Positions 10,981-27,832 of a stretch of 64,000 bases of DNA are shown here, in pieces. This DNA comes from Patescibacteria group bacterium (GTDB taxonomy: Bacteria; Patescibacteriota; Microgenomatia; UBA10105; UBA927). The notes beneath the pieces were generated by a model. The model was not told the DNA's origin, ran no database searches, and worked only from the letters and a program-made list of their open reading frames with translations. Within the stretch, counting starts at the first letter, position 1, and every line of letters begins with the position of its first letter. The stretch covers positions 27,814 through 91,813 of the forward strand of contig DATKGN010000010.1 of the NCBI GenBank assembly GCA_035510735.1, given 5' to 3'. Position numbers and translations under genes: made by a program.

Positions 10981-11409
10981 CTCCAAAATGCCATATTGAC
11001 AACCAAAGATTCAGTGTACTACGATAACTATGCTCGTGTGGAGAACTTGAAGCTTATTTTTCTCTACAAGTTCAAAACAATTGAGGTATCCTGATAATTT
11101 CTATCAGGAGACAGGACTACGTGTCTTATTACCCGAGGGTACTAAGCCAGTCCATCCGATTTACGAATCGGGAAAAATACTTCAAGCCCACACAAGCGGA
11201 ATTATTTATTTGATTGGACATTTTCCCCTCTTCTCGTTCCCTTTTCACTCTCCGTTTGATACCCGAGTAGAACACTCGCCGTTCCCGATCCGTCAGCTGA
11301 CGGATTCGCGCCCGCCCGCCAGCGAGGCAGGTCACGGTGTCGTGTCTACAGGGCCCGGCAATTTATGTTCCACTCATCGAGTAAATTTGATACAATCTAT
11401 AAAACACTC

Positions 11410-11481
11410 GCCTCTCTAGCTCAATGGCAGAGCGACGGTTTTGTAAACCGCTGATAACAGTTCGATTCTGTTGAGAGGCTC
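11410..11481 (+). tRNA. tRNA-Thr (anticodon TGT)
   Basis: Cloverleaf: acceptor gcctctc/gagaggc, D-stem gctc/gagc, anticodon loop ttTGTaa, T-arm aacag-ttcgatt-ctgtt. CCA not encoded. Confidence 0.7.
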
Positions 11482-11498
11482 ATGTTCATCAATGAGGC

Positions 11499-11822
11499 TC
11501 ACTTGAAGTATTTCGAAAGCACCTCTTTTTCAAACGGCGTATCTTCAAATAACCGGTTAAATTCAAAAAACGCCTTTTCGTTTAAACGATAGGTGATAAG
11601 TCTGCCGCGCTGAAGCTTCAACACCCACCCGCCCAGATATAGCTGCTTCAAGTGATGGGAAACAAGATTTTCCGCGAGTCCCAAATGATCCGTTATTTCA
11701 TTGACTTCCATCGGCTCATGAGCCAATAAATAGAGAATAGCCAACCGGTGTGTGTGGGCAACCCCGTGGATCCGCCTCGCAAATGGTTTCACTTTTTCAC
11801 GCAATCGTGCCCGGGTCAACAT
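11499..11822 (-). CDS. ArsR/SmtB-family transcriptional regulator
   Basis: HTH 'HRLAILYLLAHEPMEVNEITDHLGLAENLVSHHLKQL'. Confidence 0.75.
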   Translation of the reverse strand: MLTRARLREKVKPFARRIHGVAHTHRLAILYLLAHEPMEVNEITDHLGLAENLVSHHLKQLYLGGWVLKLQRGRLITYRLNEKAFFEFNRLFEDTPFEKEVLSKYFK

Positions 11823-11835
11823 ATGAAAGTGAATA

Positions 11836-12150
11836 TTATTGAACTACCTGAATCGAATCAACGTAGAGTGTCGTTCCGGAATTCTGGCCGGTAGCTGCAA
11901 CTTTTTTACCCAGATATAGGTCTAAATTGACGGAATAAGAAGCGACTCCCCACGAATTTCCGTCACCGACGATAATATGGGTGAAATCGGCTCCGGCTAC
12001 TGTTGATTTGCTTAATATCCCGGTCCGCGTAATTTTTGCAGTCTGATAGACCGTACTTGCGGCTTCTTTACTGCCGAAATACCGAATAGCGAAATACCCG
12101 CCAACTGCAACAATGACGAGAAAAAGAATACCTACTAAAAATGCTTTCAT
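11836..12150 (-). CDS. hypothetical secreted/membrane-anchored protein
   Basis: N-terminal TM/signal 'MKAFLVGILFLVIVAVGGYFAI'. Upstream of ArsR. Confidence 0.5.
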   Translation of the reverse strand: MKAFLVGILFLVIVAVGGYFAIRYFGSKEAASTVYQTAKITRTGILSKSTVAGADFTHIIVGDGNSWGVASYSVNLDLYLGKKVAATGQNSGTTLYVDSIQVVQ

Positions 12151-12234
12151 ATATAGTCACTGTATAAAGATCCGCACACCTCGTCAAGGACATCGTATTC
12201 AAAGAAGTAAAAAACAGATATAATAGGCACCATA

Positions 12235-12285
12235 GCTGGGATGGCGGTCGCCTCATCGGTGACCCGCCGATGAGGCGGGAGTGGC
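12235..12285 (+). other. tRNA-Tyr 5' fragment interrupted by a perfect 11-bp hairpin
   Basis: 'gctgggatggcgg' (identical to the first 13 nt of the tRNA-Tyr at 12547) + hairpin 'cgcctcatcgg-tgaccc-gccgatgaggcg' + 'gcgggagtggcc' (compare tRNA 'gcggagtggtc'). Confidence 0.6.
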
Positions 12286-12291
12286 CAATGT

Positions 12292-12543
12292 ATGTACTAT
12301 GTCTATATACTCAGAAGTATTAAAGACGGTAAACTATATATTGGCAAAACACGTAATCTCAGAGATAGATTTAATAAACATGAGCAAGGCCAAGTAACTG
12401 CAACAAAAAATAGATTACCCGTGCAGTTAGTCTTTTATGAGGCATTTGTCAATAAAACGGACGCGGGACGAGAAGAATTATTTTATAAAAGCGGTTTTGG
12501 ACGTGAGGCATTACAAAGCAAATTATTGAACACACTAAAATAA
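12292..12543 (+). CDS. GIY-YIG nuclease superfamily protein (small stand-alone)
   Basis: 'MYYVYILRSIKDGKLYIGKTRNLRDRFNKH' contains the GIY...YIG motif. Confidence 0.75.
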   Translation: MYYVYILRSIKDGKLYIGKTRNLRDRFNKHEQGQVTATKNRLPVQLVFYEAFVNKTDAGREELFYKSGFGREALQSKLLNTLK

Positions 12544-12546
12544 CAA

Positions 12547-12631
12547 GCTGGGATGGCGGAGTGGTCAAACGCAACAGTCTGTAAAACTGTCGCCTTAACG
12601 GGCTACCTAGGTTCGAATCCTGGTCCCAGCA
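12547..12631 (+). tRNA. tRNA-Tyr (anticodon GTA), class II with long variable arm
   Basis: Acceptor gctggga/tcccagc, 3-bp D-stem, anticodon stem acagt/actgt with loop ctGTAaa, long variable arm, T-arm ctagg-ttcgaat-cctgg. Confidence 0.8.
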
Positions 12632-12864
12632 CCCTTCGACTCGCGCGGGCTCGCTCAGGGCAAGCGTACGAGTCGATAGTAAGACCAGAATGAGAAGTTG
12701 AGTCGTAATCGACGAAATCCTGAGCGTTTACCCTGAGTACTATCGAAGGAAAGTCGAAGGGAATCCTGGTCCGGAGCACTTTTCGACTCTCCGCCAATTG
12801 GCGGATCGTTCAGGGCAGGCTCATAAATTGACGAAGGATACGAATCTATACTATAGTAAGTTTC

Positions 12865-13833
12865 ATGGATCCAACTGTCCCATCTGACCCGACAAACATC
12901 GCTCCTCCGATTGATTCCACACCGGTAAAACCATTAGATCCTGTCATACCTTCCCAAATTAAACCCTCCTTTTTCGATAAAATCATTGCGCTTTTTATGC
13001 CACCGTTTACACCACAGAAGATATTGGCAATTGTGTTATGTGTCATTGTTGTTCTAAGTATAACCGGCGGACTATTCGTATTCGGCATGAGAGCGCAGTC
13101 AAAAAACGGTACCCCATCACAGGCTCCGGTCGCATTATCATCATCGCCAACACCGACAGACATCCCAACGGATACACCAACAGATGCAGTCGTACCGACG
13201 GACACCGATACACCAACTCCAACGATCGCCGTTTCACCGACGCCAACAGTGAACCCGATGCCGACATCTACAGGAACACCTACTCCAACACCGACACCAA
13301 GTACTCAAACGCAGACGATTACATCGCAGGCATCACTGGATGGCTATGAGTCAAGCGACGGAAGCGGCAGCACGACGGGAGATATTCAGGCGGGAAGAAA
13401 TAATGCGCTGACTATGAGGGGTTTTGTCAGTTTCCCGTTAAATTCAATTCCCACAGGCGTCACCATTGATCAGGCAACGATCCGGCTATACCAAAAGAGT
13501 GTTGATGGTAATCCATACAGTGCTTTAGGCAATCTGGTATTAGACCATCTGAATTATGCAACACTTGATAATTCAGACTATGACAATAGCTCAGAGATTA
13601 TTTTATCCAACTTCGCAACACTCAGTTCTTCGGCCGCAACGGGAGAATGGCGGGAAGCCGATGTATCGGATAGGGTTAGAGATGATATAACAAACCATAG
13701 AAGTAACTCACAATACCGATTGCGCTTCTCAACGGAAACTGTCGGCGGCGGAGGAAGTGGAGACTTTGCACATTTTGAAGCAGCAGATACCGGATCAAAT
13801 ACTATTCCACAACTCTTCATCCGTTATCATTAA
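12865..13833 (+). CDS. secreted Pro/Thr-linker protein with C-terminal DNRLRE-like beta domain
   Basis: TM/signal, long 'PTPTDIPTDTPTD...TPTPTPTPS' linker, then 'LDGYESSDGSGSTTGDIQAGRNNALTMRGFVSFPLNSIPTGVTIDQATIRLYQ', which resembles the DNRLRE domain. Confidence 0.45.
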   Translation: MDPTVPSDPTNIAPPIDSTPVKPLDPVIPSQIKPSFFDKIIALFMPPFTPQKILAIVLCVIVVLSITGGLFVFGMRAQSKNGTPSQAPVALSSSPTPTDIPTDTPTDAVVPTDTDTPTPTIAVSPTPTVNPMPTSTGTPTPTPTPSTQTQTITSQASLDGYESSDGSGSTTGDIQAGRNNALTMRGFVSFPLNSIPTGVTIDQATIRLYQKSVDGNPYSALGNLVLDHLNYATLDNSDYDNSSEIILSNFATLSSSAATGEWREADVSDRVRDDITNHRSNSQYRLRFSTETVGGGGSGDFAHFEAADTGSNTIPQLFIRYH

Positions 13834-15862: not shown

Positions 15863-15890
15863 CAGATAGCTCAGTGGTAGGGCGAGTTCC
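15863..15890 (+). other. truncated 5' half of a tRNA-Thr (pseudo-tRNA fragment)
   Basis: 'agatagctcagtggtagggcgagttc' closely matches 'ggatggctcagtggtagagcgagttc' of the intact tRNA-Thr 30 nt downstream. Confidence 0.45.
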
Positions 15891-15921
15891 GGTGCCGTAA
15901 TCTAAGCCGTGTAAAAAATAC

Positions 15922-15993
15922 GCCTGGATGGCTCAGTGGTAGAGCGAGTTCTTGGTAAGAACTAGGTCGGGGGTCCAATTCCCCCTCCAGGCT
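15922..15993 (+). tRNA. tRNA-Thr (anticodon GGT)
   Basis: Acceptor gcctgga/tccaggc, D-arm gctc-agtggta-gagc, anticodon stem agttc/gaact with loop ttGGTaa, T-arm ggggg-tccaatt-ccccc. Confidence 0.8.
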
Positions 15994-15995
15994 CA

Positions 15996-16110
15996 AGAGC
16001 TTACGCGGCGAGATTACGGGATAATACCTAGATCGAGGGTCCCCCGCCTGCCAATCGCCTTCGGCGATAACCGATGGCGGGCAGGGATTCCTGCCTCAAC
16101 GCTTGCCTCA
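15996..16110. repeat. tRNA-associated element (copy 1)
   Basis: 'agagcttacgc...ccccgcctgcc...ggcgggcaggga', shared with the segment downstream of tRNA-Trp. Confidence 0.5.
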
Positions 16111-18568: not shown

Positions 18569-18638
18569 AGGGCCATGATGCAATGGTAGCATGAGGGTCT
18601 CCAAAACCCTTCATCCAGGTTCAAGTCCTGGTGGCCCT
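18569..18638 (+). tRNA. tRNA-Trp (anticodon CCA)
   Basis: Acceptor agggcca/tggccct, D-arm atgc-aatggta-gcat, anticodon stem agggt/accct with loop ctCCAaa, T-arm ccagg-ttcaagt-cctgg. Confidence 0.8.
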
Positions 18639-18717
18639 GCAAAGGGGTCGTGGTTCCCCGCCTGCCAGAGCTTACGCTCAGGCGTTAGCGGGCAGGGACT
18701 CCACGTGGCCCTGCAAA
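18639..18717. repeat. tRNA-associated element (copy 2), bounded by a direct repeat of the tRNA-Trp 3' end
   Basis: 'gtggccctgcaaa' occurs at 18631-18643 and again at 18705-18717. Between them lies 'ccccgcctgccagagcttacgctcaggcgttagcgggcaggga'. Confidence 0.6.
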
Positions 18718-27468: not shown

Positions 27469-27832
27469 AACGGACACTCCTAACATCCTCTTCCATCTGA
27501 CGTGTGAGTGCGTCAACGGACGGAAATTTTATGATATCACGAAGCTTTCTCATCGGTTCGACCAATATCTGCGTCATATCGCTCATTGATAAATCCATCC
27601 CATCCAAACCTAATAAAAAAACTTCAAGATTGCGGCTGGCGTCATCAAACGTCGGTATCGGACCCCAGTGCATGGCTCCCCGAAATTTCGTACCGCTTAT
27701 CGTGACCCATGCAGCGTAGACACCTTCCGCAAGATCAAACCCCTCTGGAATTGCCATATTGACGGTAGGGTATCCCAAAAATCTTCCTCTTCCTTTTCCC
27801 TTTATTTGTTTCGTTACGAAATGCGTGGTCAC
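27452..27832 (-). CDS. riboflavin kinase (monofunctional, RibF C-terminal-type)
   Basis: 'KGKGRGRFLGYPTVNM' (GRGRxLGxPTAN flavokinase motif). Confidence 0.7.
   Translation of the reverse strand: MTTHFVTKQIKGKGRGRFLGYPTVNMAIPEGFDLAEGVYAAWVTISGTKFRGAMHWGPIPTFDDASRNLEVFLLGLDGMDLSMSDMTQILVEPMRKLRDIIKFPSVDALTRQMEEDVRSVRSILRQ

Follow-up and report, generated by a model that had tools for sequence, protein, structure and literature searches.

We analysed a 64,000-nucleotide (nt) stretch of contig DATKGN010000010.1 from a Patescibacteria group bacterium (positions 27,814 to 91,813; hereafter "the window"), in which a small gene for a GIY-YIG nuclease lies between a partial and a complete copy of tRNA-Tyr (window positions 12,219-12,820, all features on the plus strand). 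The locus begins with a TATAAT box (12219-12224), read from its sequence as the presumed -10 element of the native tRNA-Tyr promoter, and continues with an orphan copy of tRNA-Tyr positions 1-13 (GCTGGGATGGCGG, 12235-12247, an exact repeat), a twin hairpin module comprising HP1 and HP2 (12247-12278, defined by fold and covariation), a resumed tRNA copy corresponding approximately to tRNA positions 14-23 (GAGTGGCCAA) together with 3 nt that precede the ATG (12279-12291, identified by repeat search), and an open reading frame (ORF) encoding an 83-amino acid (aa) minimal GIY-YIG nuclease (12292-12543), assigned to the prokaryotic Slx1/UPF0213 type by Pfam, profile and fold comparisons. Only 3 nt separate its stop codon from the start of an intact tRNA-Tyr(GTA) (12547-12633), the functional copy, which was called by ARAGORN, as were all tRNA genes in the window, and confirmed at full length with the Rfam tRNA model (RF00005, 60.5 bits). 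The sequence AGCTGGGATGGCGG, i.e. 14 nt including the preceding A, is present exactly twice, at 12234-12247 and at the tRNA-Tyr start (12546-12559), while the D-loop remnant GGAGTGGCCAA (12278-12288) shares 10 of its 11 positions with the tRNA D-loop GGAGTGGTCAA; relatives of the locus, described below, also resume the tRNA copy, each with its own local D-loop sequence. When the region 12100-12950 was shuffled 500 times with preservation of dinucleotides, an exact direct repeat of at least 14 nt arose once and a perfect hairpin of at least 11 base pairs (bp) never. Hairpins and gene together make up a cassette of about 300 bp (12247-12543) that occupies the D-loop region of tRNA-Tyr. It is preceded by the native promoter and tRNA positions 1-13, and because a complete tRNA-Tyr follows directly, tRNA function is kept. 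A first-pass annotation of this DNA had placed the ORF between a 5' tRNA-Tyr fragment and an intact tRNA and had proposed an insertion in the D-arm region with the downstream copy supplying function; each of these elements was found at the same coordinates, and the proposal is supported.

The product of the ORF matches the Pfam GIY-YIG family (PF01541, E=1.1e-14) over residues 1-68 of 83. In an alignment of 31 sequences the catalytic Tyr, Arg, His and Glu residues of GIY-YIG enzymes (Y3, Y5, Y16, R26, H30 and E62) are invariant, which settles a question that had been left to checking in the first-pass annotation, and judging from this conservation the active site is intact. A profile built from 31 homologues retrieves from the PDB 1ZG2 (BH0048, E=1.6e-11, 40% identity) and 1YWL (EF2693, 2.6e-9), followed by weaker matches to SLX1 nuclease domains (4e-4), I-TevI (8e-3) and UvrC (0.22). 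The AlphaFold2 model comprises one compact domain (pLDDT 96.8), for which the best Foldseek matches are 1ZG2 and the SLX1 structures 7CQ3 and 6SEH (TM ~0.67, root-mean-square deviation 1.7-2.2 Å). The whole 83 aa are taken up by the catalytic domain, with no C-terminal DNA-binding region (NUMOD, zinc finger or helix-turn-helix), there is no invariant Asn after E62 in the 31-sequence alignment, and none of the NCBIfam entries provides a specific family (TIGR01453 reaches 22.7 bits, its cut-off being 56). A "minimal, stand-alone" Slx1-like branch that lacks the C-terminal Asn conserved in the UvrC lineage has been delineated before (PMC1564403). The 83-aa protein has the Slx1 nuclease fold, the stand-alone architecture and the absence of a conserved C-terminal Asn by which that branch is recognized, and it shares both sequence and fold with its Slx1-like/UPF0213 members of ~85-100 aa (YhbQ, BH0048 and EF2693; 1ZG2 and 1YWL). 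Sequence comparisons and the predicted fold agree in identifying it as a minimal stand-alone nuclease of the Slx1/UPF0213 (YhbQ) type rather than the I-TevI type, so that its initial description as a classical homing enzyme had to be given up in favor of a bare catalytic domain. A phage origin of the cassette was considered and rejected, with no relative of the ORF in the viral contig collection and only a weak homing-endonuclease match in PHROG; a defence system was rejected as well, with no match in a PADLOC search.

GIY-YIG enzymes are frequent in group I introns, and bacterial tRNA genes can host such introns (PMC3984707). A search for an intron-like fold had been suggested in the first-pass annotation. 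A group I intron, or what remains of one, that carries a GIY-YIG homing endonuclease and lies in the D-arm of tRNA-Tyr is nevertheless scarcely credible here: a cmscan search that compared 11300-13300 with the entire set of 4227 Rfam families (E<=10) recovered, besides the two tRNAs, nothing but chance matches of snoRNA level, with no intron or ribozyme among them, the ORF has only 57 nt of non-coding DNA before it and 3 nt after it, and the protein lacks the DNA-binding domain of I-TevI and fits the Slx1/UPF0213 type far better. Moreover, the downstream tRNA-Tyr is uninterrupted and full length, which leaves nothing to splice and disposes of the suggestion that the insertion has interrupted the tRNA itself.

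We scanned one genome per species for relatives of the ORF, using a narrower alignment as the profile after the first one had proved too diverse, and obtained at least 562 relatives, of which 80 loci were kept for analysis (loci are designated by L numbers; L001-L006, which encode the same exact protein, come from the same strain with 100% identical DNA and are uninformative). Most of the relatives carry Patescibacteria or candidate phyla radiation (CPR) labels, others those of Melioribacter, Nitrospirota, Opitutaceae, Bacteroidota etc. A tRNA gene lies on the same strand within 200 nt of the ORF in 45 of the 80 loci and on the opposite strand in none, against a background of 4.4% calculated from the tRNA density elsewhere in the same loci (binomial P~1e-39). 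The linked loci involve 26 anticodons, or 27 with the Tyr-GTA of the window. The strict 45:0 strand bias, combined with this P-value, implies that the link to tRNA genes is not a matter of chance. An ordinary YhbQ-like housekeeping gene that happens to lie by tRNA-Tyr among unrelated local repeats, an outcome foreseen in the first-pass annotation, is therefore a highly improbable explanation: it got the protein family right, as the product is of the UPF0213/YhbQ type, but it is contradicted by the frequency of same-strand tRNA adjacency, by the recurrence of the fragment-hairpin-ORF-tRNA layout at many tRNA genes and in many lineages across the family, and by local repeats that exceed those of shuffled sequences. 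The cassette looks like a member of a large family of cassettes that colonize tRNA genes, mostly in Patescibacteria (CPR)-labelled genomes.

Partial tRNA copies are a recurrent feature of this family. When the adjacent tRNA was aligned to the far side of the ORF, a partial copy scoring z>=5 versus shuffles was found in 26 of 55 tRNA-ORF pairs. Where the ORF lies upstream of the tRNA, the copy generally starts at tRNA position 1; where it lies downstream, a 3' partial copy comes after the ORF (e.g. Lys 8-74 in L009 and L045, Cys 21-75 in L019). In most of the copies inspected, the tRNA sequence is broken in the D-, anticodon- or T-loop region by a single GC-rich hairpin or a pair of them. Loci with an upstream ORF usually begin with the host flank (often with TATAAT) and tRNA positions 1 to ~6-24; after one or two GC-rich hairpins the tRNA sequence resumes briefly and gives way to the ORF with its ATG, and the complete tRNA follows after 0-30 nt or is overlapped by the ORF; in seven GTDB loci and in L106 the 3' end of the ORF overlaps the 5' end of the tRNA. 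The ORF tree tracks the target tRNA, with Tyr, Gln(+Gly), Ser, Lys, Val and Cys clades and occasional switches. Some loci contain tandem or multiple copies (L019, L110, L015, L023 and L052), and a single genome may hold several paralogous copies at different tRNAs. No recombinase gene was found within or beside the inspected cassettes, and no inverted repeats between the region upstream of the ORF and its 3' end were detected in any tRNA-type relative from GTDB or around the window ORF. As a particular case of a compound locus, L019 (40-665) comprises tRNA-Cys, an ORF, a hairpin-bearing pseudo copy and a second ORF.

The module that precedes the ORF in the window consists of HP1 (GTCGCC-TCATC-GGTGAC, 12247-12263) and HP2 (CCGCC-GATGA-GGCGG, 12264-12278) and is dyad-symmetric. 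Because HP1 and HP2 are near reverse complements of each other, it can alternatively fold into a perfect 11-bp hairpin with arms at 12249-12259 and 12267-12277, which is the structure that the first-pass annotation had pointed out. Twelve positionally equivalent modules of this kind (type A), taken from Tyr, Gln, Gly and Ser-GGA loci, were aligned. Pairing in the two-hairpin fold reaches 98.5%, and 6 of 11 pairs have changed on both sides, a result matched by none of 500 shuffles, whereas the single long hairpin is 87.9% paired, does not exceed the shuffles and exhibits no covariation. The 11-bp hairpin, real as it is in the window, was for this reason discarded as the conserved structure, which according to the covariation is a pair of adjacent short hairpins. 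An asymmetry of G-T wobbles between strands (3 wobble cells against 1-2 A-C-type cells) was considered as a sign of a role at the RNA level and dropped, as the counts are too small. The end of HP2 and the resumed tRNA copy create a Shine-Dalgarno (SD)-like GGGAG 5' of the ORF; furthermore, CCTC in HP1 is complementary to GAGG in HP2, and the long fold (-31 kcal/mol) fully pairs the SD-like GAGG. This pairing may serve as a translational toggle that restrains a dangerous enzyme, an idea that does not account for hairpins in those 3' partial copies that no ORF follows.

Different clades of the ORF are associated with different cis modules. Type A, of which the window module is the local version, accompanies the Tyr and Gln/Gly ORF clades and occurs at Gln, Gly and Ser-GGA loci as well; type B (TCCGCC-CAA-GGCGGA, present twice) accompanies a Ser clade; type C (GTGAACC...GGTTCAC followed by CCGCACC...GGTGCGG) a clade at Leu, Asp and Arg; and an 85-nt nested repeat another Ser clade. 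The type of the module thus tracks the ORF clade and not the identity of the tRNA, and since in most inspected loci with an upstream ORF the hairpin also abuts the ORF, the two can be regarded as one unit. Throughout ~560 kb of fetched DNA and the window, twin hairpins of type A are present at these cassettes only. In the inspected loci, hairpins are located either in a partial tRNA copy, in its D-loop, anticodon region or T-loop (e.g. L107, where GGTTC, the twin hairpin and GAATCC... follow one another, L039 and L109), or abutting a tRNA end (L113, L115, L034, L061 and L054), and never inside a functional tRNA. L113 and L115 exhibit the bare unit, namely the 3' end of tRNA-Thr, the twin hairpin, 6-11 nt, the ORF and tRNA-Tyr. 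In L110 (1420-2680), tRNA-Ser(GGA) is flanked on each side by twin hairpins and surrounded by three GIY-YIG ORFs within 1.2 kb; the 3' pseudo copy at this locus comes from a different tRNA.

The history of the cassette can be followed best at tRNA-Tyr. Genomic context was fetched for the eight nearest homologues (60-74% identity; L106, L107, L109 and L111-L115), seven of which lie directly 5' of tRNA-Tyr(GTA), the remaining one (L109) being situated at tRNA-Ser(GGA). A metagenome scan with the first 26 nt of the window tRNA-Tyr yielded 19 tRNA-Tyr loci with an identical 5' 26-mer, none of which possesses a GIY-YIG ORF 5' of the tRNA; tRNA-Thr or a TATAAT box adjoins tRNA-Tyr instead, and the gap between tRNA-Thr and tRNA-Tyr is 2-10 nt. 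One of the 19, L097, has a distant relative of the ORF (38% identity) ~6 kb away on the opposite strand. Filled and ORF-less alleles of the same tRNA-Tyr locus therefore both exist, as would be anticipated from the insertion postulated in the first-pass annotation. A TATAAT box is found 10-26 nt 5' of the tRNA, or of its 5' fragment, at ORF-less tRNA-Tyr loci (L088 and others), at the filled L106, L107 and L114, and at L099. The latter has the most similar tRNA-Tyr but no ORF; between its TATAAT box and the complete tRNA lie a 5' fragment from another tRNA-Tyr allele (GCCGAGA...) and a hairpin (reverse strand, 1075-1233); behind its tRNA-Thr there is in addition a 3' partial copy of a different tRNA-Thr allele.

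Within the Tyr clade, nonsynonymous differences are few (pN 0.08-0.26) and synonymous sites are saturated (pS 0.6-0.98), a pattern that indicates strong purifying selection on the ORF; given this saturation, the cassette must be old at the tRNA-Tyr locus. The orphan 5' fragment, in turn, is identical to the local tRNA allele (57 of 57 positions) across five lineages with differing acceptor stems (the match is seen e.g. in L106, L107, L111 and L114), and such identity in the face of saturated synonymous sites calls for ongoing conversion, re-insertion or constraint. The duplicated 3' end of tRNA-Tyr is a different matter. In the window, where the first-pass annotation had correctly noticed it, the duplicate (12761-12779) bounds 127 nt of structured non-coding DNA only, while the ORF is bounded by the 5'-end duplicate, and 3' duplicates that start in the T-loop are present both at L107, L111 and L113 and at the ORF-less tRNA-Tyr loci L088, L093, L094, L097, L102, L104 and L105. 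The 3' duplicate is a separate, clade-wide trait of tRNA-Tyr loci that is seen also without the ORF.

The remaining 35 of the 80 loci, which have no tRNA nearby and for the most part no twin hairpin, include a sister clade. Inverted repeats of 12-16 nt with at most one mismatch bound the ORF in at least 19 of the 35 loci (15-16 nt in L018, L025, L038, L055 and others), the commonest upstream copy being (T)CACCCCGTGAGATA, and in 14 of these loci the right repeat encodes the C-terminal YLTG and the stop codon. In L018, L025 and L085 (~2440-2760) the element resides inside the gene for a YhcG PD-(D/E)XK nuclease, in the same place each time (...EFAGKM | NFYL...), and the Pfam domain YhcG_C matches the downstream piece of the gene from profile position 79-92 on. 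The junctions in L085 can be read to the base: host bases complete the stop codon of the element, and its removal restores GGG AAG ATG AAT TTC TAC and, exactly, the reading frame of the host gene. Other copies lie inside integrase-like (L038, L055 and L068), HsdR-like (L056) and IS200-like (L059) genes, the last two recognized by weak Pfam matches. With these insertions in genes, a mobile past of the whole family is hard to doubt.

The interpretation that we favor, with confidence slightly better than even, is that the unit at 12247-12543, a dyad-symmetric twin hairpin joined to the gene of a bare-domain Slx1/UPF0213-type GIY-YIG nuclease, is a long-resident selfish cassette of the homing type. 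Its promoter, fragment, hairpins, ORF and tRNA would be transcribed as a single unit from the native tRNA promoter, whose TATAAT box would now drive the 5' fragment, the ORF and the tRNA together (a scan for consensus promoters makes no call at 12219-12224, as there is no match to the -35 element), and RNase P would free the tRNA 3 nt past the stop codon. The nuclease is predicted to cut in or near the tRNA gene, upon which repair or gene conversion would install the cassette and keep it uniform. Homology for the repair would be provided by tRNA sequence on both sides, i.e. the orphan fragment on the left and the whole tRNA on the right, and the process would reproduce the fragment-cassette-tRNA order and prevent the fragment from diverging from the tRNA. 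As enzymes of the Slx1 type cut branched and stem-loop DNA, the twin hairpin may be the cis element of the cassette, recognized by a structure-specific nuclease or blocking it, unless it acts as a translational brake. Precise loss of the cassette would leave the junction TATAAT...GCTGGGATGGCGG|AGTGGTCAAACGC.

Several observations weigh against a selfish cassette. Synteny is kept in the Tyr clade, and the flanking host proteins are as diverged as the ORF (54-67% versus 73-74% identity); kept synteny and the inferred purifying selection fit long vertical residence, and could equally be expected of a gene useful to the host. The complete tRNA retains an unaltered D-loop, with 26 nt identical to those of ORF-less loci, so that simple immunity, in which the insertion destroys its target, is inapplicable if the target is inside the tRNA. 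It is also not obvious how a catalytic domain of 83 aa could recognize a specific sequence. Partial tRNA copies with structured inserts flank the tRNA-Thr(GGT) and tRNA-Trp genes of the window without any ORF, and some tRNA fragments may thus arise via another process. Finally, the ORF tree is a neighbor-joining tree with no bootstrap, the 12 hairpin segments were gathered by hand, by position, and the case as a whole is a comparative one, built from sequences.

Long vertical residence, conserved synteny and strong purifying selection would be equally at home in a domesticated, tRNA-linked host factor, either acting on RNA (in the processing or quality control of tRNA and its precursors) or guarding the tRNA gene, and co-expressed with the tRNA, in which case the tRNA-like leader with its hairpins would be a regulatory device and not the scar of an insertion. 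The leader fragment would then follow the local tRNA allele as a functional tRNA mimic should, and CCTC and GAGG in HP1 and HP2 would constitute an SD/anti-SD toggle. Slx1-like domains are also known in fusion with a TrmH-type tRNA methyltransferase, which the authors took as a hint of a role in RNA metabolism, and in linkage with COG4123 methyltransferases (PMC1564403). We nonetheless consider a host factor unlikely: its distribution would have to be patchy enough to leave all 19 tRNA-Tyr loci with the same 5' 26-mer without the ORF, paralogues occupy different tRNAs in one genome and form tandem arrays, the twin hairpin turns up in 3' pseudo copies with no ORF (L107, L109 and L039), and the sister clade, with its inverted-repeat ends, is plainly inserted in protein-coding genes.

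The ORF-less partial copies bring in yet another explanation, according to which the tRNA fragments are litter from integrase-mediated integration and its decay, or from homology-facilitated illegitimate recombination of imported alleles, and the ORF is merely retained beside tRNA genes, where strong promoters and safe intergenic space favor it. Copies without an ORF and with breakpoints in the T- or D-loop are found at tRNA-Thr(GGT), tRNA-Trp, tRNA-Thr(TGT) and the ORF-less tRNA-Tyr loci, and crossover sites in the T-loop and the anticodon loop are typical of tRNA-targeting integrases. Pseudo copies also often represent other, self-consistent alleles, which points to import (the T-stem of the tRNA-Trp copy, GCCGAGA versus GCTGGGA in L099, and the 3' copy of L113). 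Yet no recombinase gene lies in or by the inspected cassettes, 5'-end duplications with D-loop breakpoints are unlike the remains left by integrases, the hairpin type varies together with the ORF clade and the hairpin abuts the ORF as parts of one unit would, and both the 45:0 orientation and the ORFs that run into the 5' end of the tRNA bespeak a precise and repeated geometry of insertion. We therefore rate the litter hypothesis as rather improbable, and retain the selfish cassette as the preferred interpretation.

Among known systems, a close parallel to such a cassette is provided by the free-standing GIY-YIG homing genes of T-even phages, especially T4 SegB, a phage-borne enzyme reportedly of ~220 aa with a DNA-binding part. 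SegB is likewise encoded by an intron-less GIY-YIG gene among tRNA genes, present in some and absent from other related genomes, and its spread is attributed to break repair accompanied by co-conversion of the adjacent tRNA region (PMC2330249). In contrast to SegB, the present protein is an 83-aa bare Slx1/UPF0213 domain encoded in a chromosome; it comes with a conserved twin hairpin, and partial tRNA copies accompany about half of the tRNA-ORF pairs. Mobile endonuclease ORFs of fungal mitochondria (Allomyces atp6) are said to insert in a gene and to bring a replacement for the displaced gene end. They are harmless because a complete gene copy is kept by the ORF and the displaced part remains as a pseudogene, a trait shared with the cassette, but they differ in their protein-coding organelle targets, in the duplication of the 3' end and in their larger endonucleases; we know of no hairpin module in these elements. 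The integrative elements that split tRNA genes, such as that in the tRNA-Thr of Caldiarchaeum (PMC3293823), share with the cassette a tRNA landing site, the 5' fragment upstream and a functional tRNA after the element, but they span kilobases and encode a recombinase, whereas the cassette has ~300 bp and the GIY-YIG gene alone. With the IS200/IS605 and REP/RAYT elements the family shares the very small size, conserved hairpins as cis elements and, in the sister clade, the absence of classical target-site duplication. The likeness is formal only, as the sole ORF of the cassette encodes the GIY-YIG protein and there is no HUH/Y1 transposase in it; GIY-YIG chemistry involves no covalent intermediate. 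From a transposon or a miniature inverted-repeat transposable element (MITE) bounded by terminal inverted repeats the window cassette differs in having no such repeats, which the sister clade does possess. On sequence grounds the cassette is distinct from free-standing homing genes, mitochondrial ORFs and integrative elements in the branch of its protein, its size, its twin hairpin and its 5'-end duplication.

We put forward, as a tentative possibility only, that the unit of twin hairpin and ORF and its sister form with inverted repeats together represent an unrecognized class of minimal autonomous mobile elements. In such an element, a bare structure-specific nuclease of the Slx1 type would read DNA structure and not sequence, be it its own hairpins or the loops of tRNA genes extruded in single-stranded or transcribed DNA, and would thereby drive insertion or gene conversion at tRNA genes. 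The cassette would in that case be among the smallest self-mobilizing elements known and a cause of partial tRNA copies in the window and at related loci. Full-text searches of the literature revealed no description of tRNA-linked bacterial Slx1-like cassettes, though coverage of subscription journals was partial and this absence is no proof. If the selfish interpretation is correct, the UPF0213/YhbQ proteins, which have been filed as repair-type nucleases for twenty years and treated as vertically inherited repair or housekeeping factors, would include a large radiation of selfish cassettes that, unlike such factors, are tied to tRNA genes or to inverted repeats within genes, patchy in distribution, present in multiple copies and equipped with hairpin modules, each lineage being bound to one particular tRNA gene and carrying a conserved structured module of DNA or RNA. 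This would explain the small GIY-YIG ORFs beside tRNA genes in the sampled Patescibacteria-labelled genomes, and provide a natural case of an 83-aa nuclease domain that chooses its targets without a DNA-binding domain, as well as a bacterial counterpart to the structure-specific cleavage by Slx1 that could be tested on defined hairpin substrates. Annotators would be well advised to regard tRNA fragments and hairpins beside tRNA genes in these genomes as possible scars of elements and not as assembly errors.

The region behind tRNA-Tyr in the window begins with a structured spacer of 127 nt (12634-12760, plus strand, identified by repeat search and folding), which ends in perfect 10-bp inverted repeats (CCCTTCGACT at 12632-12641 and AGTCGAAGGG at 12752-12761) and forms a long imperfect hairpin (-44.6 kcal/mol, z=-2.9). 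It is followed by the orphan 3' end of tRNA-Tyr from the T-loop onward (GAATCCTGGTCCGGAGCAC, 12761-12779) and a diverged copy of ~40 nt of the trailer (12761-12820 in all, defined by direct repeats). The pieces of the duplicate are GAATCCTGGTCC, exact at 12761-12772, AGCACTTTTCGACTC at 12775-12789, and GGATCGTTCAGGGCAGGC at 12803-12820, corresponding to the tRNA 3' end and the trailer, and the trailer copy contains the palindromic hairpin TCCGCCAATTGGCGGA (12790-12805). No second copy of the spacer exists in the window or in the fetched loci. Comparable inserts of 60-130 nt, delimited by 18 nt repeated from the tRNA 3' end, are present at the ORF-less tRNA-Tyr loci L093, L094, L097 and L102; the spacer and these inserts recall the 178-bp repeats that reportedly lie behind E. 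coli tyrT.

Some partial duplicate lies close to each of the four tRNA genes of the window. Upstream of tRNA-Thr(GGT) (15922-15994) there is an ORF-less 5' partial copy (GATAGCTCAGTGGTAGGGCGAGTTCC, 15866-15891), and its 3' partial copy (16029-16105) carries a GC-rich structured insert of 44 nt in the T-loop (CCCGCCTGCC...GGCGGGCAGGG). The 3' partial copy (18647-18717) of tRNA-Trp (18569-18640) has a 41-nt insert in the T-loop (CCCGCCTGCC...GCGGGCAGGG) with the same ends as the tRNA-Thr(GGT) insert, and the motif CCCGCCTGCC is common to these two inserts only. The T-stem of the tRNA-Trp pseudo copy is CGTGG/CCACG as compared with CCAGG/CCTGG in the functional gene, and since the changes are compensated, the copy stems from another functional allele. 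At tRNA-Thr(TGT) (11410-11481), the final 8 nt, GAGGCTCA, recur 11 nt downstream (region 11475-11501). The possibility that the 127-nt spacer and the tRNA-Thr(GGT) and tRNA-Trp inserts are repeated MITEs was rejected, as there are no further copies in the window or the fetched loci.

Between the repeats at the tRNA-Tyr locus there is, apart from the GIY-YIG gene, a spurious ORF over the tRNA and no gene for a tyrosine or serine recombinase, as an integrase-borne genomic island at a tRNA gene would carry. A 46-aa ORF (12553-12693, plus strand), which appears as a gene call on the public contigs L001-L003, lies wholly over tRNA-Tyr and its trailer and is almost certainly a false gene call. The genes neighboring the cassette encode an ArsR-type regulator, a 104-aa membrane-like protein and a CBM96-like protein.

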